Positions 10,113 through 32,000 of a stretch of DNA of 32,000 nucleotides are shown here, one piece after another (positions within the stretch are counted from its first letter, which is position 1; each line of letters opens with the position of its first letter). A program made the translations under genes and the position numbers. The notes beneath the pieces are model-generated. The model did no database searches, was not told where the DNA came from, and saw nothing but the letters and a program-made list of their open reading frames with translations. The stretch is from Desulfatiglandaceae bacterium. GTDB taxonomy: Bacteria > Desulfobacterota > DSM-4660 > Desulfatiglandales > Desulfatiglandaceae. The DNA is taken from NCBI GenBank assembly GCA_041753575.1, contig JBGSUA010000033.1, positions 58,091 through 90,090 on the forward strand. Direction: 5' to 3'.

Positions 10113-10146
10113 AGATTTTCCTCGCAAAATAGTCTAGTTTTCTCAA

Positions 10147-11252: not shown

Positions 11253-11418
11253 TCAGGTTGTCAGGTTCACTGTTCACGGTTTAAATGAAAATGCTTCCAA
11301 CTTATTGACCATTTTCATCTTTCGTTGTGCCCTACCCGGGCATGGCCGTTAGCTAGTTGGCTTTCGTTCTTCATAGCTCTCTAACCTTGAACCGCGAACC
11401 CCTGAACTTTGAACCTGA
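11253..11418. repeat. Long imperfect dyad built from phased GGTT(C) and GAAC(C) arrays
   Basis: Left arm 11253-11282: tcaGGTTgtcaGGTTCactGTTCacGGTT. Right arm 11383-11418: AACCttGAACCgcGAACCcctGAACtttGAACCtga. Outer 7 bp (tcaggtt/aacctga) are perfectly complementary, and inner blocks pair 6, 5 and 4 bp with bulges. A perfect 9-bp hairpin, atgaaaatg (11285-11293) / cattttcat (11310-11318), is nested between the arms. Confidence 0.6.
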
Positions 11419-11472
11419 GTATTTACTAATAATCTAAGTATTCAGGTTATTAGGCTGTAGGCTGATAGCCTG

Positions 11473-11533
11473 TTAGTCATTGCGTATGGCATTCTCTTGA
11501 AGCTCTGCAATCTAAAAGCCTACAGGCTATCTA
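11473..11533 (+). repeat. 61-nt dispersed intergenic element, copy 1
   Basis: ttagtcattgcgtatggcat...taaaagcctacaggctatcta aligns without gaps to the reverse complement of 29116-29176. I counted 46/61 identities by hand. The ends are conserved (18/20 and 19/21) and the centre is variable (9/20). Confidence 0.65.
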
Positions 11534-11571
11534 ACCGTAACTAATAGAACTCATTAAGATCGTTGTTCCCG

Positions 11572-11669
11572 GGAGGACGTGAGAGTCGCATAAGGCGCCC
11601 GGCATGTACCCGGGGAAAGGCGATTGCACTTTCGATTTCATCAGGTCTCGAGCGACTCACACGTCCTTC
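11572..11669 (-). repeat. 18-nt inverted repeat (16/18) with 62-nt spacer, directly after the PpsA-like stop codon
   Basis: ggaggacgtgagagtcgc (11572-11589) versus gcgactcacacgtccttc (11652-11669). One mismatch becomes a G-U pair in RNA. An inner cccgg/ccggg mini-hairpin sits in the spacer. On the mRNA strand the stem begins 6 nt after the TAG at 11677-11675. Confidence 0.6.
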
Positions 11670-11674
11670 TACTG

Positions 11675-13531: not shown

Positions 13532-13586
13532 GATTTGCCTCCTTCTTGAGTTGGTTTGGGTTAACGAAAAATACCGGTTCACACAA

Positions 13587-16017: not shown

Positions 16018-16093
16018 ACGCTGTCAGTCCGGCTATGCAGTGTAAAACCGCCTCGGCAGGCATCCTTGTCTAGTATTGATAGGTGGAGTTCCC

Positions 16094-16876
16094 CTAATAC
16101 CTGGATTCCGCGACGGCCTTCGGTTTTGTAAGTATTACGGCAATGTCCACGGCCTCTTCCGATGTGCCGCCATCCTGCCGGATCTTCACGGCCAGGGTCC
16201 CTGCCGCATCCTTTCTTTCCACCCCTGAGACAACGGCCTCCAGTATCTTGAGTCCCTTCAATCCCAGGGCCTGTGGCATGAATCCATCCCGGAATTCCCG
16301 GCACAGGGGTGAAACAAGGATAATTTCTAACTCAGGATTGCGGTGAAGAGCAAGAATAGACTCATTGACCCCAAGAATAAGGGAGGAAAGGAGATACGCA
16401 TCCCCACCCTTTGGAGCCCCCTGAATGATGGCGATTCTCTTGGGTACCTCTCCGTCAAGAGATGATACCACAAGCCCGTCTGTAGGCCCTGTGGGAGAGA
16501 GCATCCTCTCAAATTGAAGATCTGTGATCACATTGGCAAAAGATCCGTAGCCAAGTTCCCTGGGGATTTTTTCAAAGGTGTTGTCCTGACCCGCGGTGGT
16601 GACTACCTCATCAAATTCAAGGTCAAGGATCTGATCCGGGATACTGAAATCAATCGCCTCAGGCTTGCATTCGGCCCAGCACAGGGCGCATCCCAGGCAT
16701 CTTCTGCAGCTCAGACACCTTTTTGCTTCTGTTATGGCCGTTTCCTCAGGAAAGCCTGTTTCGACCTCGGTAAAATTTCCCTTTCTTTCCGCGACCGTTA
16801 TCTCCGGCATTTCAGCCCGTTCGGCCGGGACGTCGAAAAATGGGATGATATATCTTCGTTCTTTTTCGTAGATCAT
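16094..16876 (-). CDS. Ferredoxin-like plus HdrA-middle-domain protein, degenerate (FeS Cys cluster lost)
   Basis: 260 aa. The ATG abuts the TAG of the upstream gene, with a GAGGAG SD. EAKRCLSCRRCLGCALCWAECKPEAI and NVITDLQFERMLSPTGPTDG are collinear with the HdrL-like segment [26 protein letters not shown]...[20 protein letters not shown]. Where HdrL has QCVGSRD...YCSSVCCMY, this protein has IIQGAPKGGDAYLLSSL. Confidence 0.65.
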   Translation of the reverse strand: MIYEKERRYIIPFFDVPAERAEMPEITVAERKGNFTEVETGFPEETAITEAKRCLSCRRCLGCALCWAECKPEAIDFSIPDQILDLEFDEVVTTAGQDNTFEKIPRELGYGSFANVITDLQFERMLSPTGPTDGLVVSSLDGEVPKRIAIIQGAPKGGDAYLLSSLILGVNESILALHRNPELEIILVSPLCREFRDGFMPQALGLKGLKILEAVVSGVERKDAAGTLAVKIRQDGGTSEEAVDIAVILTKPKAVAESRY

Positions 16877-18550
16877 CTATTTGCTCCTCAGGTATTCGTG
16901 AATCCCCAGGGCGCCCTTCTTGCCGCCTGCGATGGCCCTGATGGCGATATCGGGTCCCGAAACCACGTCGCCACCGGCGAAAACGCCGGGTATGTTGGTC
17001 TCGCCTGTGTATGGATCTATCTCAAAAGTTCCGTATCTGGAGATCTTGAAGGTGTGATCCTGAGGAAGCATCGAGAGGTCTGTCCCCTGGCTTATGGCGG
17101 GAACTATGGTTTCGGCCTCGATGACATATTCTGAGCCGGTTTTTGGTACCGGCCTTCTTCTTCCGGATGCGTCAGGCTCACCCAGTTCCATCTTTATGCA
17201 CTTCATGCCTGTGGTCTTCTGTCCATCGCCAATAATCTCAACAGGGGCTGCCAGATACTGAAGCTTAATCCCTTCATGTTCCGCCGCGTCAATCTCCCAT
17301 GGGTTGGCAGGCATCTCCTTCTTGGTCCTTCTGTAAAGGATATAGACTTCATCAAAACCCATGCGCCAGCCCACCCTGGCTGAGTCTATGGCCGCGTTTC
17401 CTCCCCCAATGACAATGATCTTTCCCTTGGCCTGCGGAAGCCTCCCTAATGCCTGTTCCCTCAGAAAGGTAACGCAGTCAATCACACCCTTGCCCTGGTA
17501 TTCATCTTCTCCGGGCACGGCGAGCTTAAGTCCCCTGTGGCACCCGGCGCCGACAAAAAGGGCATCAAAGTTTTTCTTCAGATCATCAAAGGATATGTCC
17601 TTGCCCATCCTGGTATTATAATGGATCTCAACTCCCATGGAGCAGATCAGATCCACTTCCCTCTGAAGGATCTTTTTGGGGAGGCGGTATTCCGGGATTC
17701 CCACCCAGAGGTATCCGCCAGGGATTGGCAGTGCCTCGAAGATCTCTATGTCTTTGTAACCAAGCCTTGCAAGGTCGTAGGCGCAGGCGAGACCGGCAGG
17801 ACCAGCGCCCACAATGCCTACTTTCTCAGGATATTTCTTGACGGGTGTTTCGTATGCCGGCTCAACACCTTTAGACAGCTCGACGTCTGACACAAACCGC
17901 TTGAGAAAACAAATGCTTATTGGCTTGTCGAGATATTGTCTGTTACAAGCGGTCTCGCACGGATGAGGGCATATTCGGCCTATGCTTCCTGGCAGGGGAA
18001 GCCTGTCTCTGATTACGGCTAGTGATTCGAGGTACTTTCCGTCAGCGATAAGGCCCACGTAGGAACGAATATCAAGATTTGCCGGGCATGTCCTTTGACA
18101 GACAGGCATTTCCTCCTTGAATATGTTGTATTCGCCGGTAATGGGATTGCAGAAATCAACAGCGGTTCTAAAGCCAAGACCCTCGTTGAAGTCATCGAAC
18201 ATGTTGACAGGACACACTCTTATGCAGGCCTTGCAGTCGGTGCACTTGGAGTTGTCAACGCGGATGCTCCTTTTGAGGATTTTGGCATTTACCTTGCCGC
18301 TATCCTTTCGCAATCTCTTGATCTCACTGTAGGTAAGGATGTCAATGGAGCTGTTTGAACGCACCTTTTCAAGATCCGGATTAACAAAGGCGTTTTCCGG
18401 GGTTATGAGCCGATCTCTGGGGATGCGCTCCGCGCCAAGGGTTGGGAACTTCTCAAGGATGGTAACCTTGGCTCCTGCCTGGGCCCTTTCAAGAGCCGCG
18501 TTTACGCCCTCAAGACCCCCTCCGATAATCAATATTTTTCTGCTTTCCAC
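16877..18550 (-). CDS. Fusion of a degenerate HdrA N-terminal FAD segment, ferredoxin and a GltD/NfnB-type NAD(P)H-binding flavoprotein
   Basis: ORF 16877..18619 (TTG), trimmed to the GTG at 18550 (VESRKILIIGGGLEG). AAGAGG lies 9 nt upstream, and the start is 5 nt after the upstream TGA stop. GltD hallmarks: GRICPHPCETACNR, VGIVGAGPAGLACAYDL, IIVIGGGNAAIDSAR and GVFAGGDVVSG. Confidence 0.8.
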   Translation of the reverse strand: MESRKILIIGGGLEGVNAALERAQAGAKVTILEKFPTLGAERIPRDRLITPENAFVNPDLEKVRSNSSIDILTYSEIKRLRKDSGKVNAKILKRSIRVDNSKCTDCKACIRVCPVNMFDDFNEGLGFRTAVDFCNPITGEYNIFKEEMPVCQRTCPANLDIRSYVGLIADGKYLESLAVIRDRLPLPGSIGRICPHPCETACNRQYLDKPISICFLKRFVSDVELSKGVEPAYETPVKKYPEKVGIVGAGPAGLACAYDLARLGYKDIEIFEALPIPGGYLWVGIPEYRLPKKILQREVDLICSMGVEIHYNTRMGKDISFDDLKKNFDALFVGAGCHRGLKLAVPGEDEYQGKGVIDCVTFLREQALGRLPQAKGKIIVIGGGNAAIDSARVGWRMGFDEVYILYRRTKKEMPANPWEIDAAEHEGIKLQYLAAPVEIIGDGQKTTGMKCIKMELGEPDASGRRRPVPKTGSEYVIEAETIVPAISQGTDLSMLPQDHTFKISRYGTFEIDPYTGETNIPGVFAGGDVVSGPDIAIRAIAGGKKGALGIHEYLRSK

Positions 18551-18554
18551 TTTG

Positions 18555-19337
18555 TCATACCTCTTTAGGAGCGAGTGTATAGAGAGGACTTTGGCCGGCA
18601 ATCCTGTCCAGAACCACAAAGCCCTTTCGCTTCAGAGCCAGTATATGGCGAAAGACCTTTTCGACAGGCATGGAAAAGGAAGCGGCCAGATCCTTTACAG
18701 ATCGCGCCCCTTCCCTGAGCCCTGCAATGATCTCCTGGACCTCTGTCTCCTCAACTATAATCATGTCAACTGCGCGTTTGAATTCGTGCTCTGTAAAGAC
18801 CTCACCGTACATGTTGCCTTTCGTGAGGAACGGAGTCCTTTTTCCGATCACCCATCTGATCTTTTCTCCCGCTAGAACCGCTTCAGCACTCTCAAGTTTC
18901 TTGTGGAGCCGCGATGTCTCAAGACGATCGCCTCCTGCTCCCAGCGGCCCCAATTCTTTTATCTTTTCTGTAAATTCTGTGACGATCTTTACAAAGACCG
19001 ATGCCTCGCCTGAGGAGCATTGCCTGAAGGCCAGCCTTTCAGGGTTCATGCCCACGTAATCGAAGACTCTCCTGGCGACATCGAGTTTTGCCTTAGCCTG
19101 AAAGTTGCCGCTTATGTAATGACAGTCGCCGAAGTAGCAACCCACGACCAGCAATCCGTCAAGGCCTTTCTTGAAGGCCCTTGCCGTGATGGCAGGGTCA
19201 AGCCTGCCGGTGCACATGATGCGCACGATTCTGATATCCGGGGTATATTGTAGTCTGGAAACTCCAGCCAGGTCCGCTGCCGAGTAACCTCACCAGGTGC
19301 AGCAGAAGGTCAGTATCTTGGGAGCAAATTCACCCAC
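18555..19337 (-). CDS. mvhD: MvhD-like (BamF-like) FeS protein with in-frame Sec codon and about 127-aa C-terminal extension
   Basis: GTG at 19337, with AGGAGG 6 nt upstream. Reads [50 protein letters not shown]...LLVVGCYFGDCHY. ORF-track entry 18555..19226 is only the part downstream of the TGA. 260 codons. Confidence 0.8.
19290..19292 (-). other. In-frame UGA read as selenocysteine (MvhD-like copy 2)
   Basis: The TGA falls where the paralogue at 23891..24310 has Cys ([15 protein letters not shown] versus [15 protein letters not shown]). The frame continues for 244 further codons. Confidence 0.75.
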
Positions 19338-19456
19338 GGGAAACCTCCTTAAACGATAGCCTTAATCAATCTTCGCAGCCAGGCGGATCTTCAGACTCGA
19401 AGCCCACGCCCGCCTTAAACAGTCAATGCTGATGGCAGAACTTGTACGGCATGCCC

Positions 19457-21127
19457 TCAGCCCAGGAATGCCGCTATCTGAGCGTCAATCTGATCGTCCG
19501 TGAAAGAGTTAATGGTAAGAGCGTGCTGATAACAGGTAGCGGCGCATACCCCGCATCCCTTGCACGCGACATCTATCACCTTGACCTTTCTACCTTTGTC
19601 AGTCTTTTGAACCTCAAGTGCCCCGTAAGGACAAAGCGCTACGCACAATCCGCAGCCTCTGCACGCGTCCACATCGGCCAGAACCGATATGATCGGCTCC
19701 ACAACAACCGATCCCTTGGAAAGGGGTATGGATGCTCTTGATGCAGCCCCCAGACCCTGGGCAATAGCCTCGCGTAAGTTTGCGGGGAACCGGGCGCTGC
19801 CGCAAAGGAAAACACCGTCCGTCGCGAAATCAAGGGGTTTGAGTTTGACGTGACCTTCCAGGAAAAATCCGTTTTCGTCAACGGGCACCCTTATGAGCTT
19901 TCCGACCTCGTCGGCGTCCTCCTGGGAAAGCAGTGGAGTAGAAAGCACCACCATATCGGCCGGCAGTTCCATATCCTTTCCTAAAAGTGCGTTATATACC
20001 AGGACGGAACCGGTCTGGACCTGAGGAGGCCTGTCCGGGTTGTAGTTTACATATCTGATACCCTTCGCTTTAGATTCCCGGAACATCTCCTCGTTTTCCA
20101 CCCCATACATCTGCATATCTCTGTATAGTATGGTGACCTTTGTCGCCGGGTCTTTATCCTTTATCAAGAGAGCGTTTTTGACGGCGGTCTGGCAGCAGAT
20201 TCTGGAGCAGTAAGGCCTTTCTTCGTTTCTGGCTCCGGCGCACTGGATCATCACCACGCTTTTGACCGAGGGATCAAGCCCTTGTTTCAGTCTGGGCTCC
20301 AGCTCAAGCTGCGTGATGACCCTCTCGGCGTCGTATCCGTAAAGGCCGGTAGGGACAAAGACCCTCGCACCGGTGGCTATGATTACGACCCCCAGATCAA
20401 TTTTCTTGGTCCCGGTTGGTGTCTCTATATCAGCGCTGTATTTCCCTATGAAACCCTCTACCCCTGTTACCCTTGATCCTGTGAAGGTCGTTATCTTCGG
20501 ATGGCATGACACAGCTTTTACTGTGCTTTCGGCTAACTGCAAAGCGTCAGTCATGGATGGGCCAAGTTTATTCAGGTTAAGGAGCATGCCCCCCAGCCTT
20601 CCTTCCCTTTCAACGATAACTACTTCGTAGCCTCTGTTCGCGAGCGCAAGCGCCGCGGTCATACCGGAGATGCCGCCGCCGATCACAAGCGCTCTTGGAA
20701 AGACGGGGCTCATTATGGGCTTCTGGGGCTCTAGAAGGGCGGCCTTGGCTATCCCCATTCGTATGAGATCCTTGGCCTTGCTGGTGGCTTCTTCCTTCTC
20801 CTGCATGTGGACCCAGGAGCATTGGTCCCTTATGTTGACCATCTCAAAGAGATAAGGATTGAGGCCTGCCTCGCCGCACGAACTCCTGAAAAGGGGTTCA
20901 TGTGTCCGGGGGGTGCAGGAAGCCACAACCACCCTGTTGAGGTTTTGCTGGCCAATGGCCTTCTTGATCTCGTTTATGCCTCCCTCAGAGCAGGTATAGA
21001 GGTTTCTTTGAACAAAGGCCACATTGGGGAGGGTTTCCGCGTATGCTCCGAGGGCCTCCATATCGAGATATCCTGCGATATTTGAGCCGCAGTGGCAGAT
21101 GAACACACCTATCCTAATCTCATCCAT
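19457..21127 (-). CDS. hdrA: HdrA-like flavoprotein (N-terminal Cys domain, FAD domain and two C-terminal ferredoxin motifs); second half of a BamE-like unit
   Basis: ORF 19457..21142 (TTG), trimmed to the ATG at 21127 (MDEIRIGVFICHCGSNIAGY). [36 protein letters not shown] and the C-terminal CRGCGLCVALCP/CKGCGVCAATC motifs are collinear with the C-terminal 550 aa of the 24345..28808 protein. Confidence 0.85.
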   Translation of the reverse strand: MDEIRIGVFICHCGSNIAGYLDMEALGAYAETLPNVAFVQRNLYTCSEGGINEIKKAIGQQNLNRVVVASCTPRTHEPLFRSSCGEAGLNPYLFEMVNIRDQCSWVHMQEKEEATSKAKDLIRMGIAKAALLEPQKPIMSPVFPRALVIGGGISGMTAALALANRGYEVVIVEREGRLGGMLLNLNKLGPSMTDALQLAESTVKAVSCHPKITTFTGSRVTGVEGFIGKYSADIETPTGTKKIDLGVVIIATGARVFVPTGLYGYDAERVITQLELEPRLKQGLDPSVKSVVMIQCAGARNEERPYCSRICCQTAVKNALLIKDKDPATKVTILYRDMQMYGVENEEMFRESKAKGIRYVNYNPDRPPQVQTGSVLVYNALLGKDMELPADMVVLSTPLLSQEDADEVGKLIRVPVDENGFFLEGHVKLKPLDFATDGVFLCGSARFPANLREAIAQGLGAASRASIPLSKGSVVVEPIISVLADVDACRGCGLCVALCPYGALEVQKTDKGRKVKVIDVACKGCGVCAATCYQHALTINSFTDDQIDAQIAAFLG

Positions 21128-21131
21128 TTTA

Positions 21132-22676
21132 TCAGCAGGCAACGGCTTTCTCCTTCCCTGAATAGTAATGGAACGCTATCTCAGCCGCCCTGGCAGCCGC
21201 ACTGGATGCCTGAGCGACCGATTCGGGTACATCCATTGGGGCCTGAGCGCAGCCGCATACAAAAACCCCAGGCACGTTGGTGTCCACGGGCGAAATCGGG
21301 CTGGTCTTTATGAAATTGTATTTATCAAGCTCCACGCCAAGTTTCTTTGAGAGTTCGACAATCCCCCTGGTAGGGGCGCAGGCCGTAGCCAGGATTACCA
21401 TATCGAACTCCTGGCTTTTCACCTTTCTCTCCTTTGTGTCTTCGTAGGTGACAACAGGATTATTGTTTTCGCCTCCGGTTATCTCAGCCACTCGGCCCCT
21501 TACGTACGTTATGTTGGAATGATTTCCGCCCCTGATCTTGTATTCCTCAAAACCCTTGCCCACAGCCCTTATGTCCATGCCGAATATGGTGGAAGTGGTC
21601 TCCCTCCCATGTTCGTGAGCTATGATAGCCTCTTTTATGGAGTGCATGCAGCAGTATCCGGAGCAGAAGGGAAAAAATCTGAAGTCTCTTGAACCTACGC
21701 ACTGGACAAAGGCAAGGCGCTTGGCTACACTGAACCCGGATGCTTTCGCCTTCATGGCCTCAAGGGAGGTCTGCATGGGGAGAAACTCCTCATACTTCTC
21801 AGCCCACTTGGCCCTGTCGGAGTCATCTCCGTAATCACCACTCCGGTATTTCAAGATGAAATCCGATGATTTTTCACCGTATTTTTCCTCGTATTTTTCC
21901 AGCGCCTTTACTGCCTTTTCAGCTTTTTTCTCCAGTTCGGCAAGCTCCGACTCTATGGCCCTGTCAGAGGGCCGATCAAGATGCCCGCCTGTAGGTCCGC
22001 TTGCGCTCAAAAGCCTTTCGAATTCTATCGCGGTGACGACGTTCGGCAGGTCCCTGTAGTGATATTCGGGGATCCTGGAAGGGTCAAAGACATCATATCC
22101 AGCCGCAACGATTATGGAGGCGACATCAATTTCGACTATCCTGTCTTTTTGATCGAAGTTGACCGCCTTTGCCTGGCAGGTCTTGGCGCAGATACCGCAT
22201 TTTTTCCCGTTAAGCTGCCGACAGTGGGCCGGATCTATGGTATGGGTAGATGGTATGCCCTGGGCGAAGAGGCTGTATATGGCCTTTCTGGTTCCAAGTC
22301 CCTCATTAAAGGAGTCAGGCACAACAGTCGGGCATTTCTCCTTACAGGCCCCGCAGCCTGTACATTTATCCTCATCCACATATCGGGCTTTTCGGCGGAT
22401 AGTCACCTTGAAGGCGCCCGCTTCACCTTCGACCTTTTCAACTTCGCTGTAGGCCAGGAGCTTAATGTTTGGATGTCGACCGACATCCAGCATCTTCGGC
22501 GAGAGAATTCAGATGGCGCAGTCGTTTGTTGGGAATGTCTTGTCGAGCTGAGCCATCTTCCCGCCTACGCTGGGAAGTCTCTCCACCAGGTGCACCTTGA
22601 TGCCCATATCTGCGAGATCAAGGGACGTCTGGATGCCGGCAATGCCTCCTCCGATAACAAGGACGTCTTTAGTCAT
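21132..22676 (-). CDS. hdrA: HdrA-like flavoprotein with in-frame Sec codon; first half of a BamE-like unit
   Basis: ATG at 22676. Reads [79 protein letters not shown]-track entry 21132..22493 is the post-TGA part. Also [32 protein letters not shown] and QCVGSRD...FCSGYCCMH. 514 codons. Confidence 0.85.
22509..22511 (-). other. In-frame UGA read as selenocysteine (HdrA motif DCxx[C/U]IL)
   Basis: The TGA is the 56th codon from the ATG at 22676. The flanking FPTNDCAI / ILSPKM is the conserved HdrA active-site stretch. Confidence 0.8.
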
Positions 22677-22723
22677 GATCAATTATCCTTCGGTCCTTAA
22701 GTTTGTGTTAAAGTCAAAAAATC

Positions 22724-23860
22724 TCAAACAGCGGTCGCGCCGGGTTTAATCCGCTCGGCCACCATGTCGTAAAGGTCAACTATCTCTATGCCAAGATCAA
22801 ACGCTGACTTGGCGCACCGGAAATGAATCTGGCATTTGGGACAGGCAGTCACAAGGGTATCCGCTCCTGTCGCGGAAGCCTCCTTCAGTCTTTCAAGCTG
22901 TATCGCCTTGCTGCAGCTTGAGCAGTTCATCCATCCGGTGGTTCCGCAGCAGACAGCGTTTTCTCTCGATCTCGGCATCTCTGTTAGTTCCACGCCCGGC
23001 ATGGCCTTGATGATGGCCCTGGGGGCATCAAAGATGCCGGCAAGCCTGCCGAGTCTGCACGGGTCGTGGTAGGTCACTTGGGCCTTTGATTCCGTGAAAC
23101 TGATCAATCCCTGGGAGGCCTTTTCACTCAGGAGATCAATTATATGAACGGGCTCAAACCCCAGTTCACCGAAATAGCGGGGATAGTAACGCTTGAATGT
23201 GAGGTAGCCTTCCGGACAACTGAAGACGACCCTCTTCGCCCCTGAGGATCTGATCAGTTCAATGTTTTTAAAGGCCAATTTCTTGAATTTATCCTCATCT
23301 CCGTTCCAAAGTGCATCGTGGCCGCAGCAGCGCTCATCATTGCTGACAACAGGTATCTCACCCATGGCATTGAGTATGGACACAATGTTTCTAGAACTCT
23401 TTATGGATCCGGCATTTATGTCCCTGAAGACCACATCAAAATATGGGCGGCATCCGACGAAATAGAAAAGGTCTCCCTTTTCAGCCGTCTTGAGGCCTTC
23501 AAGCCAGAAGTTTCTCTTCTGCGCCATTTCCCCGGTCTGTATGGAAGTTATGGTCTGTAGCATGCCGTTGTGCGCGGGCACTCCGTCAAAGCCCATTTGG
23601 TGTGCCTCGTCTCTCATGAGGCGCACGAATTCCGGGAAATCTATGTTGGCTGGACACCTGACGCTGCACTGGGCGCAGGTCAGGCAGCTCCAGATGGTTC
23701 CATCCGATGGTTCTTCCAGACCGTAGAGGGATCTTTCTATGATCTGGCGTGGTGAAAAATCACTGAATACCCTGGCCACAGGACAACTTCCTGTGCAGAC
23801 TCCGCAGTCCAGGCAGTAGTAGGTCTTTGTTGCGTCTATTAACTGGGCAATTGCAGTCAT
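22724..23860 (-). CDS. HdrD-like / BamD-like protein (HdrC-type 2x[4Fe-4S] N-terminus plus two HdrB-type CCG domains)
   Basis: 378 aa. CLDCGVCTGSCP and CLTCAQCSVRCP ferredoxin motifs. CCG-type motifs FVGCRPYF...ERCCGHD and YHDPCRLGR...AVCCGTTGW. Confidence 0.85.
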   Translation of the reverse strand: MTAIAQLIDATKTYYCLDCGVCTGSCPVARVFSDFSPRQIIERSLYGLEEPSDGTIWSCLTCAQCSVRCPANIDFPEFVRLMRDEAHQMGFDGVPAHNGMLQTITSIQTGEMAQKRNFWLEGLKTAEKGDLFYFVGCRPYFDVVFRDINAGSIKSSRNIVSILNAMGEIPVVSNDERCCGHDALWNGDEDKFKKLAFKNIELIRSSGAKRVVFSCPEGYLTFKRYYPRYFGELGFEPVHIIDLLSEKASQGLISFTESKAQVTYHDPCRLGRLAGIFDAPRAIIKAMPGVELTEMPRSRENAVCCGTTGWMNCSSCSKAIQLERLKEASATGADTLVTACPKCQIHFRCAKSAFDLGIEIVDLYDMVAERIKPGATAV

Positions 23861-23890
23861 TGTCTCGCCTCGTCCAATAAAGTCATTTTC

Positions 23891-24310
23891 TCAGGCCGCC
23901 TTGCGAAGAGGCGAGGGGCCTATGGCCTTGACTTGTCGCGTGAATTCAGTGGCAACCTGAGCGAATTTTGTGCCTTCTGCAGATGAGATCCATTCAAGGC
24001 GCAGTCTGATCGGATCAATTCCCAGAATGACGGCCAACTCCCTGGTCATTGCGAACATCTTTTCTGCCTTTACATTACCGTCCAGGTAATGACAGTCACC
24101 GATGTGTCAGCCTGCGACCAATACCCCGTCGGCCCCCTGTTCAAAGGCCTTCAGGATGAAATTGGGATTTATCCTGCCTGAGCACATGACCCGGATTATC
24201 CTCATGTTAGGAGGATACTGGAATCGGCTCACTCCGGCAAGGTCCGCAGCCGAATAGGCGCACCAGTTGCAGGCGAAGGTTACTATCTTTGGACTGAACT
24301 CCTCGTTCAT
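23891..24310 (-). CDS. mvhD: MvhD-like FeS protein with in-frame Sec codon
   Basis: [26 protein letters not shown]...[30 protein letters not shown]...[10 protein letters not shown], with a stop at 23893-23891. I counted 72 codons after the TGA by hand. The ATG at 24310 has GGAGGAG 9 nt upstream; the alternative ATG at 24328 has its SD too close. ORF track lists only 24107..24328. Confidence 0.8.
24107..24109 (-). other. In-frame UGA read as selenocysteine (MvhD motif G[C/U]HxGDCHY)
   Basis: The paralogue at 18555..19337 has Cys in this column (LLVVGCYFGDCHY versus VLVAG-U-HIGDCHY). Confidence 0.75.
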
Positions 24311-24344
24311 GCTGCTGAACTCCTCCATACCTCAAATAAGGACC

Positions 24345-27300
24345 TCAAATGCCCTGGTGCAGCGCTGCGTGCACCATGGTGAGGACCTCTTGGTCGTCAA
24401 AGTGAAATATGCTGGCCGCCCCGGTGGGGCAAGCCACCGCGCAGGAGCCGCATCCCTTGCAGAGGGCCTCCTGAACAAAGGCCACAGTTCTTCCTCCCTC
24501 CCTTTCAACAAGGGAGACGGCATTATAGGGGCATACTTCAACGCACTTGCCGCAGCCCCTGCACATGCTCTCAGTCACATGAGAGACAACCCCTTCAACT
24601 GTAAGCTCCTTCTTCGATAGCACAACCGAGGCCCTTGATGCGGCTGCCTTTGCCTGGGCTATACTTTCCTCAATGGGCTTGGGATAATGTGCCATCCCGG
24701 CCAGAAAAATTCCATCAGTTGCGAATTCCACAGGTCGCAGTTTTGCGTGTGCTTCCATGAAGAAACCGTCCTGATTAAGCGGAAGCTTGAATATCTGTGC
24801 GAGGGCACTGTTATCCGCTGGGATAATGGCTGATGCAAGCGCCACAAGATCTGCGCGGAGCCTGATTTTTCGATCTAAAATATGATCTTTCACAGTTACC
24901 CAAAGCTCGGATCCATCTTTTTGAACCTCAGGCTTATCGTTGAGGGTATATCTTATGAATATAACTCCCTTGGCTCTGGCATCTCTATAAAGGGCTTCTC
25001 TTTGCCCATAGGTTCTTATGTCTCTATAAAGGACATAAATATCCATTTCCGGATTAAGTTCTTTGAGTTCCAGCGCGGACTTGATGCTGTGGGTACAGCA
25101 GACTTTTGAGCAGTAAGGTCTGGAAGGCTCCCTTGACCCCACACACTGTATGAAGACGGCGGCTTTGGCCTCCGATATACGGATGTCCTTGCCTGTGATC
25201 GCCCTGTCAAGCTCAAGATGGGTCATAACCCTCGAGTCTTCTCCGTATAGATACTCTTTGGGCTTGCATTCCTCGGCGCCGACCGCCATCACGACCGCTC
25301 CGTGGCGGATCTGGGTATCTTTTTCTCCCTGCCCTATGGCGGTCTCGAAGTTGCCTACAAAACCACTGCTTTGCCTGATCACAGCATCTGTGTAGAGATC
25401 AATTAATGGGTGACTTTTAACCCTCTCGATCATCTCAGACAAAGATCTGCCTATTTCTTCCCCTCTCCACGTTGAAACAAGGTTCCTTGCGTTGCCTCCC
25501 AGTTCACTTGCCTTCTCTACCAGGGTAGTCCTGTAGCCCTGATCAGCAAGAGAAAGAGCTGATGTCATTCCGGCTATTCCTCCGCCGATGACGAGAGCCC
25601 TGTCGTCTACTCCAATGGTAGGCTGTGGAAGGGGGGTTATGAGCCTAGCCCTGGCCACTGACATTCTAACAAGATCCATAGCTTTCTGGGTTGCTTGCTC
25701 TTTCTCCCTGCTGTGGACCCAGGAGCACTGGTTGCGTATATTTGCCATCTCAAAAAGGTACTTATTGAGGCCTGCATCTCTCAATGTTTCTTGAAAAAGC
25801 GGCTCGTGAGTCCTTGGAGTACATGCCGCCACCACAACCCGATTCAGTTTCTCCCTCTGGATTACCTCCTTCAACTTGTCCTGAGTGTCCTGGGAACAGG
25901 TGAAGAGATTTTCCTCCACATAGGCTACACTTGGCAGGGATCGAGCGTATTTTACAACCTCAGGCACATTGACTATGCCACCAATGTTAGTTCCGCAATT
26001 GCAGACAAAAACACCGATTCTCGGTTTTTCATCTGAGACATCCCGTTCCGGGGGATAGATTCTTTCCTTTACAAGGCTGCCCCGAGCGGAGGAAAGTTTG
26101 GCCTTAACGTCACACGCCGCTGCGCTTGCCTCCATTACAGAATATGGTATATCCTTTGGTTCCTGAAATGCGCCGCATACATAAACACCTGGTCTGGATG
26201 TTGCCACTGGTGAGAAGCTTCCGGTGTCAACAAAACCGTCTTTGTCGAGTGAGATCTCAAGTCTTTCTGCCAGTGCCTTAAGAGACGCGGGGGTCTCGAG
26301 CCCGACAGAGAGAACAACAAGGTCAAAGATCTCTTCCCTGGGTGTTCCGTCCTCATCAGCATACCTTATGATCAGGTCGTTCGTTTCGCCAACCTCTTCT
26401 ATGGAATGGATCCTCGATCGGATATATCGAACTCCCATCTCTTCCCTGGCACGGTTGTAATAACCTTCGAAGTCCTTCCCGTAAGTTCGCATATCCATGA
26501 AAAAGATGGCAGTATCAAGGTCTCCGCCGGCATGCTCCTTGGCAATTACGGCCTCCTTGGTTGCATACATGCAACACACAGAGGAACAGTAGGAATGATC
26601 GCACTGGTTGATGTCTCGGGAACCAACGCATTGGAGCCAGGCAATCTTATGAGGGTGTTGTCCGTCAGAGGGCCGCTTGAGCTGCCCCTGATAAGGGCCT
26701 GTTGAACTCAGGATCCTCTCAAACTCCATGCTGGTCACAACGTTGGGAAATCCGGCGTAGCGATAGGTCTCGTAGCGGCTGGGATCAAAAGGCTCAAAAC
26801 CCGGTGCGAGAATCACGGACCCAGCCTTTATTTTCAGGAGATCACTCACCTGTGCATGGGTTTCGAGTGTGACAGCCTGTGCTTTGCATGCAGTGACGCA
26901 TTGATAACATTCGCAGCATCCTCCGCAGTTGAGACAGCGATTGGCCTCTTCAGAAGCGTCTTTTTCGCTGGCGCAGAGGTTTACCTCCTGAAAACCGGAA
27001 AGCCTTTGTTCCGGGGGCATGGTAGGCGCATGCATTCTATGCCTTATGGGTTCCTCCTTGGAAATTGAAAGCCAATGGTCTCCCATGGGGGGGCCTTCTT
27101 CCCATTCTGTTGGAAGGACTTCACCTTGCAGATATTTGGAGATATAAGTTGCAGCTCGCTTTCCGGCCTCCACCGCTTCAATTACCGTAGCGGGGCCTGT
27201 AATGAGATCTCCGCCTGCGAAGATTCCTGGCTGGTTGGTCTGAAGTGTTTCTGGGTTTACTACCAGTGTGTTCCATCTCGATATCTCAAACCTGGAATCC

Positions 27301-28808
27301 TTCCCCAAATTTCCGAGGTCTGGTTCCTGACCAACAGCAGGTATGATATGCTCCGCCTCGATAAAGAATTCCGATCCTTCTATAGGAATCGGCTTTCTTC
27401 TCCCGGTGGAATCGAGTTCTGAGAGTTTTGTCCTTATGCATTCTATTCCTGAAACGTTGTTCCCATTACTGGCGATCTTGAGAGGAGCCACCAATAAATG
27501 AATCTTGATTCCCTCAATTTCGGCCTCCTGGATTTCTTCTGGTTCAGCAAGCATCTCTGCCTTTGACCGTCTGTAAATGATATGGGCCTCGCTAGCTCCA
27601 AGCCTTAGTGCGACCCTGGCGGCATCCAGGGCTGAATGTCCCCCTCCGATTACCACCACCCGGCCTTTTAAGGAAGATAGTTTTCCAAGGTGTACTTCTC
27701 TCAGAAAGGTTATTACATCTACAACTCCCAGGGCCTCCTCTCCTGCTATTCGCATCTTGAGTCCCTTCCAGGCCCCAATTGCAAGAAATATCGCGTTGGC
27801 GCCGTGTGCCTGTAAGTCTTCCAAAGTGATGTCTTTGCCTAGTGAAACATTTGTTTGAATGGCTATGCCGAAGCGGGAAAGGTTATTTATCTCTGCATCC
27901 AGGACACTTCTTGGGAGGCGATGCTCAGGAATTCCGTAACGCATCATTCCTCCAGCCTCCGGCATTGCCTCGTAAACGGTAACCCGGTAACCATCGAGAG
28001 CAAGAAAATAGGCTGCAGTAAGACCTGCAGGGCCTGATCCTATTACAGCAACATGCGCTTTTCTGGGTGTTATATTTGGAACTGGGAGATCGCTGAGGTT
28101 TACGTGGTCGGCTGCTACACGTTTTAACTCCTTTATGGATATAGGCTCATCAACCTCGAGCCTGCGACAGCTCTTTTCGCAGCGATGAGGACATACCCTT
28201 CCCAGAACCCCTGGGAAAGGGAGATCCTTCATTATGATCTCAATGGCTTCTCGGTACTTCCCCGCCTTCACCATCTGGACATACCCCTGCACGTTTAAGT
28301 GGGCCGGGCATGCCATCCGGCAGGGGGCCTTGTCCAGTTTCTCTATGGCAAAACCTCCGGGTATGGCCTGGGCATAGGGTTTAAAGATAGCCTTCCTTTT
28401 AGCAAGGCCCTCGTCATATTCGCTGGGCCTCACAACGGGGCAGGCCTGAGCGCAATCCCCGCACGCCGTGCAGCGGGCAGGATCAATATATCTGGGGGTT
28501 CTTCTGACAGCGACCTCGAGGTTGCCTTCTTCTCCTTCAATGCTTTCTATGTTAGAACAGGTAAGAAGCTCGATGTTGGTGTGCCGGCCGACCTCGACCA
28601 GCTTGGGCGAGATAATTCACATGGCGCAGTCGTTAGTTGGAAAGGTCTTGTCAAGCTGTGCCATCACGCCGCCTATGGCCGGCGACTTCTCAACGAGATA
28701 AACGTAATAACCGGCGTCGGCGAGATCCAGGGCCGACTGCATGCCGGCGATTCCTCCTCCTACCACTACAACAGACCCTTCTATATGCTGGGTTTTTTTT
28801 GCTTCCAT
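24345..28808 (-). CDS. hdrL: Giant HdrL-like selenoprotein: HdrA FAD domain interrupted by a GltD/NfnB-type NAD(P)H module, followed by a second complete HdrA unit
   Basis: ATG at 28808 with an AAGGAG SD. Reads [78 protein letters not shown]..., in frame with ORF 24345..28433 (125 codons upstream of that ORF's first residue). Total 1487 codons. GltD motifs [29 protein letters not shown] and [15 protein letters not shown]. Second HdrA unit: [15 protein letters not shown]...[18 protein letters not shown]...[24 protein letters not shown]. Confidence 0.85.
28617..28619 (-). other. In-frame UGA read as selenocysteine (HdrA motif DCxx[C/U]I)
   Basis: This is the stop codon of ORF-track entry 28617..28808. 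The reading frame continues uninterrupted into ORF 24345..28433. Confidence 0.8.
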
Positions 28809-28874
28809 CTATCCGCTCCTTGCGGGAAATCCCAAGATTCAGCTAAATGTTATGAAGGCAATGCCTAATAAAAT

Positions 28875-28920
28875 AGACAGCTCGAATCGGCTTATACTGA
28901 AAAGCTGTCTTTATTGTCAA
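28875..28920 (-). promoter_or_regulatory. Candidate sigma70-type promoter with an overlapping 8-bp inverted repeat, upstream of the hdrL-like gene
   Basis: Minus strand: TTGACA (28920-28915), an 18-nt spacer, then TATAAG (28896-28891), about 80 nt upstream of the ATG at 28808. The inverted repeat agacagct (28875-28882) / agctgtct (28903-28910) brackets the -10 element. Confidence 0.4.
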
Positions 28921-29115
28921 GCCCTAAAAGACCCGTGATCAACTTTTTCTATTGCCTATCCATCTAATATAGTTTGCAATCCTCGAACAGGCCATCCAGT
29001 GTGTAATGCCTCCGATTCGCGGGCTTTTTGGAAACGATCCCAAAGTTGGCATATTTCCCAGAAATGCGTATAGTTATGGGAAAGACTATTATATGAAAAT
29101 GTGAAACTACTCAGA

Positions 29116-29176
29116 TAGATAGACTGTAGCCTTTTAGGCTGTAAGGTTGGAGGATTATGCCACACACAATGACTAA
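29116..29176 (-). repeat. 61-nt dispersed intergenic element, copy 2
   Basis: The reverse complement ttagtcattgtgtgtggcat...taaaaggctacagtctatcta matches 11473-11533 at 46/61 positions with no gaps. It lies about 310 nt upstream of the hdrL-like start and about 170 nt upstream of the divergent gene at 29349. Confidence 0.65.
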
Positions 29177-29348
29177 TAGTCTGGCAGCAGCTAACCATCT
29201 AAATAGTTATGAAAATGTTTTCAGCTTAGCGATCATTTTTATTCTTTATTGCGCCCGCCGAGGGCATGGTTCTTAGAAGGCAAATCTGTATAGGGACAGG
29301 TTCGATGTTTCCGATAGTGATAAATGAGACGCGGCAAGGAGGTAATTA

Positions 29349-30107
29349 ATGCTGCGGTATGACCTTGATAATGATTTAGGGGAAGACTCAAAGGCTGTAA
29401 GGGAAGGCAAGGGCGGATCAAGGGCTTTCAAGAAGGTGGTAGCCGAGATTCTTAAATTCGGTGATCTTGAGAGGATATTTGATGAGCTTTCCCATATCCC
29501 CTATGCCAGGATGATTGGCCCTCTTTTTTCCTCTCTCCTCGCGACCGATCCAAAGGTCAAATGGAGGGCGGTTTCGGCGCTGGGATTTGTGGTTTCCCGC
29601 ATGGCGGAAGAGGAGATGGAATCCGCCAGGGTAATCATGAGGCGGCTTATGTGGCAGTTAAACGACGAATCAGGGGGCATAGGCTGGGGATGCCCGGAGA
29701 CGATGGGAGAGATTATGGCGCGCAGCGAAGCACTGGCCGGAGAGTACGCCCACGTGCTGAGATCCTACGCAGTCGAAGAGGGGAACTTCATAGAGTATGA
29801 ACCACTTCAGGAGGGAGTTCTTTGGGCGCTTGGGAGGCTCGCTCGAATAAGACCAGCCATGGTAATGCCCGCAGGAGGCGATATATTCAAGTTTTTGAAG
29901 TCAGGGGTTACCTCTGTCAGAGGACTCGCGCTCTGGACATTAAATTTTCTTGATGAGGATCTTTCCGGAGACCGGCTTGAAATCGTTAAGAGATTGTGCA
30001 GCGAAGAAGGAAAACTTATAATTTTTGTGGACGGGAACCTCATGGAGTTCACGGTGGAGGAAATGGCAGGAAGACTGCTGAAGCGCGCCGGGGCGGCTTG
30101 CCATTGA
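29349..30107 (+). CDS. Hypothetical alpha-helical repeat (HEAT/PBS-like) protein
   Basis: 252 aa. Strong SD (AAGGAGG, 7 nt upstream). Repeated VxWRAVSALG / VLWALGRL / GLALWTL helices resemble HEAT-PBS repeats, plus a central NDESGGIGWGCPETMGEI motif. No function can be assigned by eye. Confidence 0.6.
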   Translation: MLRYDLDNDLGEDSKAVREGKGGSRAFKKVVAEILKFGDLERIFDELSHIPYARMIGPLFSSLLATDPKVKWRAVSALGFVVSRMAEEEMESARVIMRRLMWQLNDESGGIGWGCPETMGEIMARSEALAGEYAHVLRSYAVEEGNFIEYEPLQEGVLWALGRLARIRPAMVMPAGGDIFKFLKSGVTSVRGLALWTLNFLDEDLSGDRLEIVKRLCSEEGKLIIFVDGNLMEFTVEEMAGRLLKRAGAACH

Positions 30108-30185
30108 CAGAGGCGCGTAACAGTGCTTAACTTTTGGAAAGTTTTGACGTAAGGATAGGATAAAGATTAGGAAAGAGGTAATTCT

Positions 30186-30917
30186 ATGAGAAGATTGATG
30201 TTACTCGTTCTTATCGGGTTGCTCGCTGTTGCTATGATTGCCTGCGGGGCTGTATATAAAGCAAAACCGCTTCCGTTTAAGACCCCTTCCAACTATCCCA
30301 ATGCCACTGAGATTGCCGGCGGGACCATCGCTGCCAAGGCCTTTGCTGATCCGGTGGAGGCTAAGGAGATATTCGGATTCAATATCCGGGAGGCCGGTAT
30401 GCTGCCGGTTCAGGTGGTATTTGACAACAAGGGAGACAGGAGCCTTGAGATAAACGGCGGCCAGACCTTTCTTGAAGATAGAGAGGGTAATCTCTGGCCG
30501 ATCCTCCCAAGCGAAATGGCCTATGAGAGGGCATCTAAGTATGCCCAGACAGGAGAAGTATTCAAGGAGGGGGTGTATCAGGGATTTCTAGGCGCCGCGG
30601 CAGGCGCTGTAATAGGAGCCGCTATAGGCATTGTGACCGGCACTAACGTCGCCTCCGCTCTGGGAAAGGGCGCTGCGGTAGGGGCCGCCGCCGGGGCAAC
30701 CGTGGGAGGCGTCAAGGGCTATGCCTCGGACGATCCGGGCAGAAAGGTAATGCAGGATTTGAGACAAAAGTCTCTTCAGAGCAAGCCCATTCCGCCCAGA
30801 AGCCTTGCTTACGGTCTTATATTTTTCCCCGGAGAGGCGAAATCGGCCAAGAATCTGAGGCTAAAGCTGGTTGACAAAGAAGGAGCAGCGGAGCATGTGG
30901 TCAACCTTGGGCTATAA
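30186..30917 (+). CDS. Lipoprotein with an internal glycine-zipper segment
   Basis: 243 aa. Signal peptide MRRLMLLVLIGLLAVAMIAC with a lipobox-like M-I-A-C. Gly/Ala zipper GFLGAAAGAVIGAAIGIVTGTNVASALGKGAAVGAAAGATVGGVKG. SD AAGAGG. Confidence 0.7.
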   Translation: MRRLMLLVLIGLLAVAMIACGAVYKAKPLPFKTPSNYPNATEIAGGTIAAKAFADPVEAKEIFGFNIREAGMLPVQVVFDNKGDRSLEINGGQTFLEDREGNLWPILPSEMAYERASKYAQTGEVFKEGVYQGFLGAAAGAVIGAAIGIVTGTNVASALGKGAAVGAAAGATVGGVKGYASDDPGRKVMQDLRQKSLQSKPIPPRSLAYGLIFFPGEAKSAKNLRLKLVDKEGAAEHVVNLGL

Positions 30918-30976
30918 TGCTCAAAGCGACCCCGTCAACAGGAATTATGGCATCAAAATAGAAAAAGGAGGAATAA

Positions 30977-32000
30977 ATGAAACCTGTAGAGATCGCAAAG
31001 GGCATCTATTGCCTTCCTGCAATTGACTGGAATATCAGAGACTTTCATGGCTATTCAGTTTATAAGGGGAGCACGTATAATGCCTACATGATACTCGATG
31101 AGAAGGTAACCTTGATTGACGCGGTGAAAAAGGAATTTGCGGATGACCTTATCAAAGGTATTTCCCAGATCATAGACCCGAAGAGGGTAGACTACGTGAT
31201 AAGCAACCATACGGAGATGGATCATTCGGGGGGGCTTTCCAGGGTGATGCACCGAATAGGAGAGGATAAGCCCCTTTATTGCTCCAAGATGGGGCATAAG
31301 AATCTATCCAAGCACTTCCAGCAGAAGTTCAACTATCATCCTGTTGAGAACGGAGGAGAGCTCAACATCGGCAAGAGGACATTGAGTTTCATGGAGACTC
31401 GCATGTTGCACTGGCCGGACAGTATGTTCACCTATGCCAAAGAAGATCGCATCCTTTTTGCAAGCGACGCCTTCGGCCAGCATTACGCCTCCCTTGAGAG
31501 GTTCGATGATGAGGTGGGAGATGAGATCATGCCTCACGCAAGGAAATATTTTGCCAATATCCTTCTTCCATACGCGCCGCTGATCCTAAAGCTGGTTGCG
31601 AAGGTGAAGGAGATAGGGCTCGCGCTGGATATGCTCTGTCCTGACCATGGAATTATATGGCGCAAGGATCCTTCAAAGATCATCAATGCATATGTTGAGT
31701 GGAGCGAGCAGAAACCCAAGAGAAAGGCCCTTGTCATCTATGACACCATGTGGCACAGCACTGAGGCAATGGCCGAGGCCATTGTGGAATCTCTCGGGGA
31801 AGAGGGGGTGGATGCGAAGCCGTTAAAATTGAGGGCTAGCCACAGGAGCGATATCATAACAGAGGTCCTGGATGCCGGGGCGATAATCATAGGTTCCCCG
31901 ACTTTAAACAATGGGCTTTTCCCCACAGTGAGCGATTTTCTGACCTATATGAAAGGTCTCAAACCGCAAAACAAGGTGGCCGCGGCATTCGGCTCCTACG
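30977..32000 (+). CDS. Flavodiiron protein (FprA / rubredoxin:oxygen oxidoreductase type), C-terminus beyond the window
   Basis: Absent from the ORF track because it is open-ended. ATG at 30977 after AAAGGAGGA. I translated it by hand without stops to position 32000. Metallo-beta-lactamase di-iron motif NHTEMDHSGG, LHWPDSMF, then the flavodoxin domain ALVIYDTMWHSTEAMA...IIIGSPTLNNG. Confidence 0.85.
   Translation, partial: MKPVEIAKGIYCLPAIDWNIRDFHGYSVYKGSTYNAYMILDEKVTLIDAVKKEFADDLIKGISQIIDPKRVDYVISNHTEMDHSGGLSRVMHRIGEDKPLYCSKMGHKNLSKHFQQKFNYHPVENGGELNIGKRTLSFMETRMLHWPDSMFTYAKEDRILFASDAFGQHYASLERFDDEVGDEIMPHARKYFANILLPYAPLILKLVAKVKEIGLALDMLCPDHGIIWRKDPSKIINAYVEWSEQKPKRKALVIYDTMWHSTEAMAEAIVESLGEEGVDAKPLKLRASHRSDIITEVLDAGAIIIGSPTLNNGLFPTVSDFLTYMKGLKPQNKVAAAFGSY

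Follow-up and report, generated by a model that had tools for sequence, protein, structure and literature searches.

The 32,000-nucleotide stretch analysed here (positions 58,091 to 90,090 of contig JBGSUA010000033.1 from a Desulfatiglandaceae bacterium; hereafter the window) carries on its minus strand two HdrA-like and two MvhD-like genes, each with an in-frame TGA codon. It is very probable that all four TGAs are decoded as selenocysteine (Sec), because they fall on Cys columns, TGA is the only stop codon used there, the coding sequence on both sides is under purifying selection in one frame, and conserved hairpins of the selenocysteine insertion sequence (SECIS) type follow them. A first-pass annotation of the window, made from the sequence alone, had proposed Sec codons in these genes, and our comparison with relatives supports it. 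The four predicted Sec codons are as follows.

28617..28619, minus strand: predicted Sec codon 64 of HdrA1 (TGA), motif FPTNDC-A-M-U (C61-A-M-U64)
24107..24109, minus strand: predicted Sec codon 74 of MvhD1 (TGA), motif GADGVLVAG[TGA]HIGDCHY
22509..22511, minus strand: predicted Sec codon 56 of HdrA2 (TGA), motif FPTNDCAI[TGA]
19290..19292, minus strand: predicted Sec codon 16 of MvhD2 (TGA), motif FCC-T-W-U (CxxU)

Readthrough translation placed the four minus-strand TGAs in frame, at the positions and with exactly the flanking peptides that the annotation had quoted. It had also described a Shine-Dalgarno (SD) sequence and a start codon upstream of every TGA, and these were found for all four genes: AAGGAG and then ATG at 28808 for HdrA1, GAGG and then ATG at 24328 for MvhD1 (with a second ATG at 24310), GAAGGA and then ATG at 22676 for HdrA2, and AAGGAGG and then GTG at 19337 for MvhD2. 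The readthrough products have 1487 (HdrA1), 145 (MvhD1), 514 (HdrA2) and 260 residues (MvhD2).

Cysteine columns and codon usage in related loci

Related loci were collected by one scan of species-representative genomes with MvhD1 as the query, which gave 80 loci, all from metagenome-assembled genomes (MAGs) or isolates of Desulfobacterota. These and three further contigs make up the 83 related loci that, together with the window, are the sample for the codon counts below. The MvhD paralogues of the window were aligned with 27 database homologues, PDB entries 5ODC (HdrA chain 5ODC_A, MvhD chain 5ODC_D) and 9SFI_A served as structural references, and domains were assigned with Pfam and NCBIfam. 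MvhD columns 23 and 74 are given in MvhD1 numbering, in which the conserved Cys set is C20, C23, C49, C74 and C79.

Alignment with Cys-containing homologues, which had been suggested as a check, put all four TGAs on conserved Cys columns (27-sequence alignment and 5ODC). The TGAs of HdrA1 and HdrA2 both align with Cys197 of 5ODC_A and with the X (Sec) of 9SFI_A, and occupy the second position of the C-x-x-C pair in the thioredoxin-reductase-like domain of HdrA. The TGA of MvhD1 aligns with Cys67 of 5ODC_D, and that of MvhD2 with Cys16 of the same chain. The MvhD Sec columns are invariant or near-invariant Cys among the 27 homologues (Cys in 20 of 27 at the column of MvhD1 Sec74) and are Cys in all of the more distant sequences. 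Moreover, the two MvhD paralogues of the window act as mutual controls: each has Cys where the other has TGA, and all five family Cys columns are present in both, one as Sec in each paralogue.

With regard to codons, the HdrA column has TGA 142 times and TGT once. MvhD column 74 has TGA in 124 of 147 genes, TGY in 21 and TTA in two, and column 23 has TGA in 58 of 151 genes and TGY in 93. Over the three Sec columns, TGA occurs 324 times and neither TAA nor TAG ever occurs in the 83 loci and the window; this recurrence is far beyond chance. All 67 HdrA1-type (class-I) orthologues and all 75 HdrA2-type (class-II) orthologues have TGA. The MvhD genotypes at columns 23/74 are C/U in 88 genes, U/U in 36, U/C in 21 and C/Leu in two, and no MvhD gene with Cys at both columns was found in the 83 loci. 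The 36 double-Sec genes of the relatives lie in loci that include L013, L019, L020, L023, L025, L037 and L074.

Three close relatives of MvhD1 have a non-Sec codon at column 74 (L001:6552-6971, L002:654-1073 and L084:341-760). The codon is TTA (Leu) in two of these assemblies and GGA (Gly) in L084, each one base from TGA, and the Gly variant still has an intact SECIS hairpin, CATTACCTGGACGGTAAT.

Such one-base variants, seen at one column in three metagenome contigs, together with the fact that the window is a single sequence, could suggest that the TGAs are sequencing or assembly errors for TGC or TGT. However, 15 further loci, assembled independently and with the gene order of the window, have the same four TGAs, and more than 80 loci from different studies have TGA at these columns. 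The error explanation is refuted in practice, and we leave it hardly any probability.

Another explanation is that the TGAs are true stops and the genes are naturally split or pseudogenised, yielding short N-terminal peptides, with their C-terminal parts separately translated or untranslated. Mechanical calling of open reading frames (ORFs) does split each of the four genes, which the first-pass annotation had described as mis-modelled by standard ORF calling, and public gene calls in relatives are split likewise, for example into pieces of 60 aa and 907 aa in L001. On the other hand, the split would fall within a conserved motif and cut the CxxC pair, TGA alone is used in the 324 instances, and no start codon or SD follows the TGA in the Sec-type genes inspected. 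Comparison of the window with four relatives showed, in a single reading frame, far more synonymous than non-synonymous differences before and after each TGA, so that both gene pieces are under purifying selection in one frame; the TGA codons themselves are unchanged. In addition, the hairpins are conserved at synonymous sites in the TGA forms only, and Sec has been seen in cryo-electron microscopy density at the presumed homologous positions of HdrA and BamF (PMC13518236; bioRxiv 10.64898/2026.04.10.717634). True stops are thus very unlikely.

A further possibility is that the organism reads TGA as an ordinary sense codon for Trp or Gly (translation tables 4 and 25), in which case the residues would not be Sec. 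Database proteins of close relatives (P0001, P0002, P0004 and P0010) indeed have W at the MvhD column. However, the one W that was checked was introduced by the gene caller: at this place the L003 DNA (98-517) has TGA, and the protein is untranslatable under table 11. Evidently, the gene caller picked translation table 4 on short contigs, which makes the spurious Trp a systematic annotation artefact for Sec genes. Moreover, Desulfobacterota use the standard code, and 12 of the 22 window genes, all four Sec genes among them, terminate with TGA at the places where their homologues end. This normal use of TGA as a stop excludes codon reassignment, and the probability that we would still assign to it is close to nil.

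Hairpins downstream of the TGA codons

The first-pass annotation had seen by eye only short stems 3' of the TGAs and had regarded SECIS elements as not demonstrated. Folding and orthologue comparison revealed a conserved hairpin after each TGA, although that of MvhD2 is thermodynamically weak.

28583..28602, minus strand: HdrA1 hairpin, GCUGGUCG-AGGU-CGGCCGGC, 8 bp, UGA-to-loop 22 nt, -12.5 kcal/mol
24073..24091, minus strand: MvhD1 hairpin, CAUUACC-UGGAC-GGUAAUG, 7 bp, UGA-to-loop 22 nt, -7.3 kcal/mol alone
22470..22489, minus strand: HdrA2 hairpin, UGGAUGUC-GGUC-GACAUCCA, 8 bp, UGA-to-loop 27 nt, -11.0 kcal/mol
19253..19268, minus strand: MvhD2 candidate SECIS, G-CUGGA-GUU-UCCAG-(A)-C, core of 5 bp plus one pair across a bulged A

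The stem ctgga-gtt-tccag that had been noted after the fourth TGA exists, at 19267-19255 and not at 19270-19258. Its UGA-to-loop distance is 27 nt, and its energy is -4.0 kcal/mol for the core and -5.9 kcal/mol in the extended form. The MvhD1 hairpin reaches -11.1 kcal/mol in its sequence context. In the model of the bacterial SECIS (bSECIS; PMC13188914), the apical loop has 3-9 nt with G at loop position 1 or 2, the stem has 4-16 bp, the UGA-to-loop spacing is 16-37 nt, and the minimum free energy (MFE) is at most -7.5 kcal/mol. The geometry (loop size, G at loop position 1 or 2, stem, and spacing of 22-27 nt) fits at all four sites. With regard to the -7.5 kcal/mol criterion, HdrA1 and HdrA2 pass and MvhD1 is borderline.

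The orthologues gave clearer results. The hairpins of Sec-type orthologues fall into five sequence classes, each near-invariant, and third-position identity is 0.95-1.00 inside the hairpins versus 0.50-0.67 in the flanking codons. At the hairpin positions of Cys-type MvhD homologues it is 0.50-0.60; the hairpins are absent from these homologues, and synonymous-site conservation is limited to the TGA forms. The HdrA1 hairpin core CUGGUCGAGGUCGGCCGG does not vary among 67 instances in 62 loci (third-position identity 0.983 inside versus 0.504 outside), and the HdrA2 hairpin GGAUGUCGGUCG(A/G)CAUCC was found in 75 instances from 75 loci (0.978 versus 0.665). For the MvhD1 hairpin the values are 0.95 inside and 0.57 outside, against 0.60 inside in Cys-type homologues. 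The helix after column 74 of MvhD shows two compensatory pairs (A-U to U-A and C-G to A-U), 93.9% of its cells are paired, and its covariation score is above those of all 500 shuffles. The mean folding energy 3' of this column is -13.4 kcal/mol in Sec forms versus -9.2 kcal/mol in Cys forms. The MvhD2 block GCTGGAGTTTCCAGAC is present in 21 of 21 orthologous genes, a class that the block itself defines, with third-position identity of 1.00 inside versus 0.64 outside and with the unusual codons AGA and CTA.

An alternative structure for MvhD2, which is the MFE fold of the single sequence, has a longer stem that pairs variable upstream codons with the invariant block. We rejected it because its 5' side varies without compensation in 18 orthologues and just the block of the short hairpin is frozen.

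Several observations weigh against Sec decoding or against single sites of it. ARAGORN found no tRNA-Sec in the window or in the 84 fetched loci. The MvhD2 hairpin (-4.0 to -5.9 kcal/mol) is less stable than the -7.5 kcal/mol that the bSECIS model requires, and the MFE fold of its region is a different one, the hairpin having a pair probability of about 0.37. Fold z-scores of the single sequences are weak (-0.6 to -1.7, and +0.5 for MvhD2), so the case for SECIS elements rests on comparison. Covariation is scarce because the hairpins barely vary, and what supports these predicted elements is conservation, not compensatory change. An Rfam scan of 18000-29500 with E up to 5 gave no family match; such a scan is not expected to pick up bacterial SECIS hairpins, which are short. 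Finally, Leu or Gly at MvhD column 74 in the three metagenome contigs may mean that the residue is not strictly essential. These TTA and GGA codons could be either sequencing errors or a very recent loss of Sec, and the latter would make the residue dispensable. Conservation at synonymous sites supports all four hairpins. Taken together, the sequence evidence for SECIS elements appears good for three sites, and that for the fourth (MvhD2) is conservation-based only.

Organization of the gene module

The four predicted selenoprotein genes belong to a module of eight genes on the minus strand of the window, which would form one operon from 28808 to 16094.

24345..28808, minus strand: HdrA1, "HdrL"-type, 1487 codons (Pfam, PDB, NCBIfam)
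23891..24328, minus strand: MvhD1, [2Fe-2S] adaptor of the MvhD/FlpD family, 145 codons (139 from the ATG at 24310) (Pfam, PDB)
22724..23860, minus strand: HdrD/BamD/GlpC-like Fe-S protein, 378 aa, 2x[4Fe-4S] and two CCG domains (PF02754, Fer4_8)
21132..22676, minus strand: HdrA2, 514 codons, thioredoxin-reductase-like (FAD) unit of HdrA (PDB, Pfam, NCBIfam)
19457..21142, minus strand: HdrA', second HdrA-like unit, 561 aa (Pfam; NCBIfam HdrA2 model positions 1-229 and 325-649)
18555..19337, minus strand: MvhD2, BamF-like long MvhD, 260 codons (PF02662, 156.8 bits against a cut-off of 22.3)
16877-18550, minus strand: g580, HdrL-like segment (Pfam, NCBIfam)
16094-16876, minus strand: g260, last gene of the eight-gene module (Pfam, NCBIfam)

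HdrA1 begins with the thioredoxin-reductase-like unit of HdrA, which contains C61-A-M-U64. An NAD(P)H-binding module similar to GltD/NfnB, some 480 residues long (about residues 160-640) and with matches to GltD, NfnI-alpha and DPD, interrupts this unit. The rest of HdrA and a second HdrA-like unit with a C-terminal 2x[4Fe-4S] domain follow this insert. In the PDB, HdrA1 matches 5ODC_A (E=2.7e-185), 9SFI and NfnI/GltD. MvhD1, which starts 17 nt after the HdrA1 stop, scores 181.9 bits with PF02662 (cut-off 22.3) and matches 5ODC_D with E=2.8e-50. The HdrD/BamD/GlpC-like gene has partial NCBIfam matches to TfrB, GlpC and HdrC, and no in-frame TGA was found in it (22724..23860).

HdrA2 matches residues 143-374 of 5ODC_A (E=9e-92) and has neither the N-terminal nor the C-terminal ferredoxin domain. 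HdrA' has the HdrA N-terminal domain, a Rossmann/FAD part without CxxC/U and a C-terminal 2x[4Fe-4S] domain, and it always adjoins HdrA2 in related loci. Judging from these domains, HdrA2 and HdrA' resemble a split, BamE-like "HdrA dimer". The C-terminal extension of MvhD2, about 125 aa, gave weak Pfam matches to helix-turn-helix (HTH) and winged-helix domains (E 0.0007-0.1, below the cut-offs). The products of g580 and g260 (16094..18550) comprise a Rossmann part of HdrA without CxxC/U, a GltD/NfnB-like NAD(P)H module and a short HdrA segment. By domain content they look like a split, truncated and Sec-less copy of the first half of HdrL, with the sequence EKFPTLGAERIP at the place of the HdrA CxxC/U motif, and they may act in the same complex as an input subunit that binds NAD(P)H and does not depend on Sec.

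No protein of the module reaches the NCBIfam cut-offs for methanogen HdrA or VhuD; with the HdrA2 model of NCBIfam, HdrA1 scores 966 bits and HdrA2 scores 509, both below the cut-off of 1100. On the basis of these scores, we regard the module proteins as paralogues and not as orthologues of the methanogen families; HdrA1 and HdrA2 are HdrA-like and are not orthologous to the CoB-CoM heterodisulfide reductase.

The order HdrL, MvhD, HdrD, HdrA, HdrA', long MvhD, g580, g260 recurs in about 20 loci. A second arrangement, HdrD, HdrA, MvhD, HdrA, HdrA', MvhD, occurs in Desulfatiglandales, strain NaphS2, Desulfobacula and Desulfocapsaceae. The flanks of the module differ between genomes and include two-component regulators, a 2-oxoacid oxidoreductase and unrelated genes. 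The closest relative among the 80 scan loci is L004 (MNYJ01000208.1, Desulfobacteraceae bacterium CG2_30_51_40), with 91.65% DNA identity to window 13889-32000. This identity is mosaic: it is 99.7% over the 5' end of HdrA1 and over MvhD1, and protein identity is just 86-87% for g260, UPF0261b and LysR. Such a mosaic suggests that part of the operon was recently recombined or transferred.

In the window, the module adjoins a gene set of the anaerobic phenol/4-hydroxybenzoate type (750-13582, minus strand). This set comprises PPDK_N and PEP-utiliser proteins (phenylphosphate synthase-like), UbiD, UbiX, an AMP-forming CoA ligase, a response regulator, a UPF0261 protein and a three-subunit enzyme of the xanthine-dehydrogenase family (4-hydroxybenzoyl-CoA reductase-like). 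A functional link between the module and these aromatic genes was considered and found no support in synteny, since the neighbours both upstream and downstream differ in other genomes; the proximity is probably incidental. Outside the module, two long overlaps between mechanically called ORFs were observed. The HcrA-like ORF starting at 3215 overlaps the gene of the 2Fe-2S subunit by 113 nt (3103-3215), and at least this start probably belongs further downstream. In the other case, the convergent LysR and UPF0261b ORFs share 68 nt at their 3' ends (14809-14876). Neither overlap involves a Sec codon, and the TGA at 3260 is in the frame of another gene.

Possible function of the predicted selenocysteine residues

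If the TGAs are Sec codons, SelB carrying Sec-tRNA(Sec) would bind the hairpins on the translating mRNA, recode UGA and insert Sec, giving full-length proteins of the readthrough lengths stated above. The products of the operon would then assemble into a soluble flavin-based electron-bifurcating or confurcating complex of the HdrA type with GltD/NfnB-like NAD(P)H modules. The module most likely encodes such a soluble, NAD(P)H-linked, HdrA-type complex. Neither BamB/BamC (tungsten AOR) nor BamGHI (HydABC-like) was found in the window or flanking the module in the relatives inspected, and the module is therefore not a class II benzoyl-CoA reductase.

In this complex, the Cys-Sec pairs of the HdrA proteins and the selenols of the MvhD proteins may link Fe-S clusters and the bifurcating FAD as thiol/selenol relays. 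Structures of homologues suggest that the Cys-x-x-Sec pair of HdrA adjoins the bifurcating FAD and an Fe-S cluster. In HdrA of Methanococcus maripaludis, Sec197 shows bridging density and a relay role was proposed (PMC13518236), and in BamE the Cys59-Cys62 pair lies between FAD and cluster E3 (bioRxiv 10.64898/2026.04.10.717634). On the other hand, one earlier analysis regarded Cys197 as a ligand of the cluster in the N-terminal domain of the partner HdrA. With regard to MvhD, a thiol/selenol relay role has been proposed for Sec19 of BamF, at a Cys position next to the [2Fe-2S] cluster (bioRxiv 10.64898/2026.04.10.717634). Sec16 of MvhD2 would be its counterpart, the residue next to the [2Fe-2S] cluster; we take the two as equivalent from the CxxU motif and the position near the N-terminus. 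Sec74 of MvhD1 may be either a ligand of the cluster or just a neighbour of it.

A more far-reaching idea is that the module encodes an uncharacterised supercomplex with two HdrA-type bifurcation cores, a GltD/NfnB-like NAD(P)H feed and Sec residues at the proposed thiol-relay or cluster-proximal sites, which by analogy with BamDEF may supply low-potential electrons to the adjoining phenol/4-hydroxybenzoyl-CoA pathway, and in which Sec74 of MvhD might be a selenolate ligand of the [2Fe-2S] cluster. We consider this idea rather unlikely.

Implications for annotation

The locus is of value mainly for annotation. Gene callers split or truncate the four genes and hundreds of their homologues in Desulfobacterota MAGs, or give them a spurious Trp; because these Sec genes are mis-called, databases misrepresent a widespread family of electron-bifurcation components. 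The five conserved classes of in-frame hairpins could be used as search patterns for Sec-HdrA and Sec-MvhD genes. In addition, the locus adds examples to a pattern in which HdrA-type bifurcating systems repeatedly have Sec at the CxxC by the FAD and at Cys positions around the [2Fe-2S] cluster of MvhD. This pattern is debated, and the structure papers of 2026 call the role of the Sec residue unresolved. The window locus leaves the current understanding unchanged.

Comparison with known systems

The first-pass annotation had held that these protein classes are not new, and published Sec-HdrA, Sec-MvhD, HdrL and Sec-BamF agree with this (PMC2702500; PMC5109826; PMC13518236). It had also cited Sec in both BamE and BamF of Geobacter metallireducens. 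This is correct for BamF, which has Sec19, and does not hold for BamE, which has the Cys59-Cys62 pair (bioRxiv 10.64898/2026.04.10.717634).

In Methanococcales, Sec-HdrA and Sec-VhuD are part of the Hdr-Vhu complex (PDB 9SFI, HdrA Sec197; PMC13518236). The window proteins share with them the Sec column of HdrA (CxxU, the Cys197 column) by direct alignment, the MvhD family PF02662 and a Cys-Sec relay proposed to connect the bifurcating FAD with an Fe-S cluster. Moreover, the double-Sec MvhD genes of the relatives fit the up to two Sec listed for MvhD/VhuD. In contrast, the archaeal SECIS is in the 3' untranslated region, whereas that of the window genes is in the coding region directly after UGA. 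The window module also differs in having neither the hydrogenase (MvhA/G) nor the HdrB/C pair, and its HdrA units, which contain GltD-like inserts, are either fused or split and permuted; NCBIfam scores with the HdrA and VhuD models lie below the cut-offs.

Among deltaproteobacteria, work on Desulfobacterium autotrophicum HRM2 (PMC2702500) describes HdrL as a fusion of heterodisulfide reductase and glutamate synthase with an NADH site, an mvhD after each hdrL, a tandem hdrL/hdrA locus, and Sec-HdrA1/2, Sec-HdrL1/3 and four Sec-MvhD together with selA, selB, selC and selD. The domain architecture of HdrA1 in the window, an HdrA with a fused GltD-like module and an mvhD gene after it, agrees with that description. 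In Desulfococcus multivorans, HdrA, MvhD and BamE are reported as Sec proteins, together with selABD (PMC5109826). Cultured Desulfobacteraceae thus possess the Sec-insertion machinery (PMC2702500; PMC5109826).

BamDEF of G. metallireducens resembles the window module in its HdrA units, fused or paired as an "HdrA dimer" with a CxxC(U) pair by cluster E3, and in an HdrD-like partner with CCG domains. BamF is an MvhD with a winged HTH domain, more than 100 aa longer and with Sec19 (bioRxiv 10.64898/2026.04.10.717634). MvhD2 is likewise a long MvhD with an N-terminal CxxU (Sec16 versus Sec19), and its C-terminal extension gives weak winged-helix matches. On the other hand, the window module has GltD/NfnB-like NAD(P)H modules instead of BamB/C and BamGHI, and another gene order.

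Finally, operons with several selenoprotein genes have long been described. A survey in 2006 ranked HdrA and FrhD/MvhD as the third and fourth largest bacterial selenoprotein families and reported glpC-hdrA-frhD-frhG-frhA selenoprotein operons in Syntrophobacter fumaroxidans and Desulfotalea; S. fumaroxidans by itself has seven Sec-HdrA and eight Sec-FrhD, and the operons concerned contain as many as four selenoprotein genes (PMC1794560). A review of 2026 likewise mentions a "four-selenoprotein-gene operon" and lists CxxU for HdrA and MvhD/VhuD, with up to two Sec for MvhD (PMC13188914). These operons and that of the window are alike in packing several HdrA and FrhD/MvhD selenoprotein genes into one deltaproteobacterial operon and in having hdrA duplicated or split (hdrA-hdrA, hdrA_N/hdrA_C). 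They differ in that the former include a [NiFeSe] hydrogenase and Sec-GlpC, whereas the window has neither, its GlpC/HdrD-like gene being without TGA, and its four Sec are in two HdrA and two MvhD paralogues. The density of Sec codons, which the first-pass annotation had singled out, is not exceptional: loci of relatives have four Sec codons in 22 cases, five in 30 and six in four, within at most 20 kb, so the density in the window is typical for the clade. Since Sec-HdrA, Sec-MvhD, HdrL, Sec-BamF and four-selenoprotein operons have all been published, the window genes are new members of known selenoprotein families.

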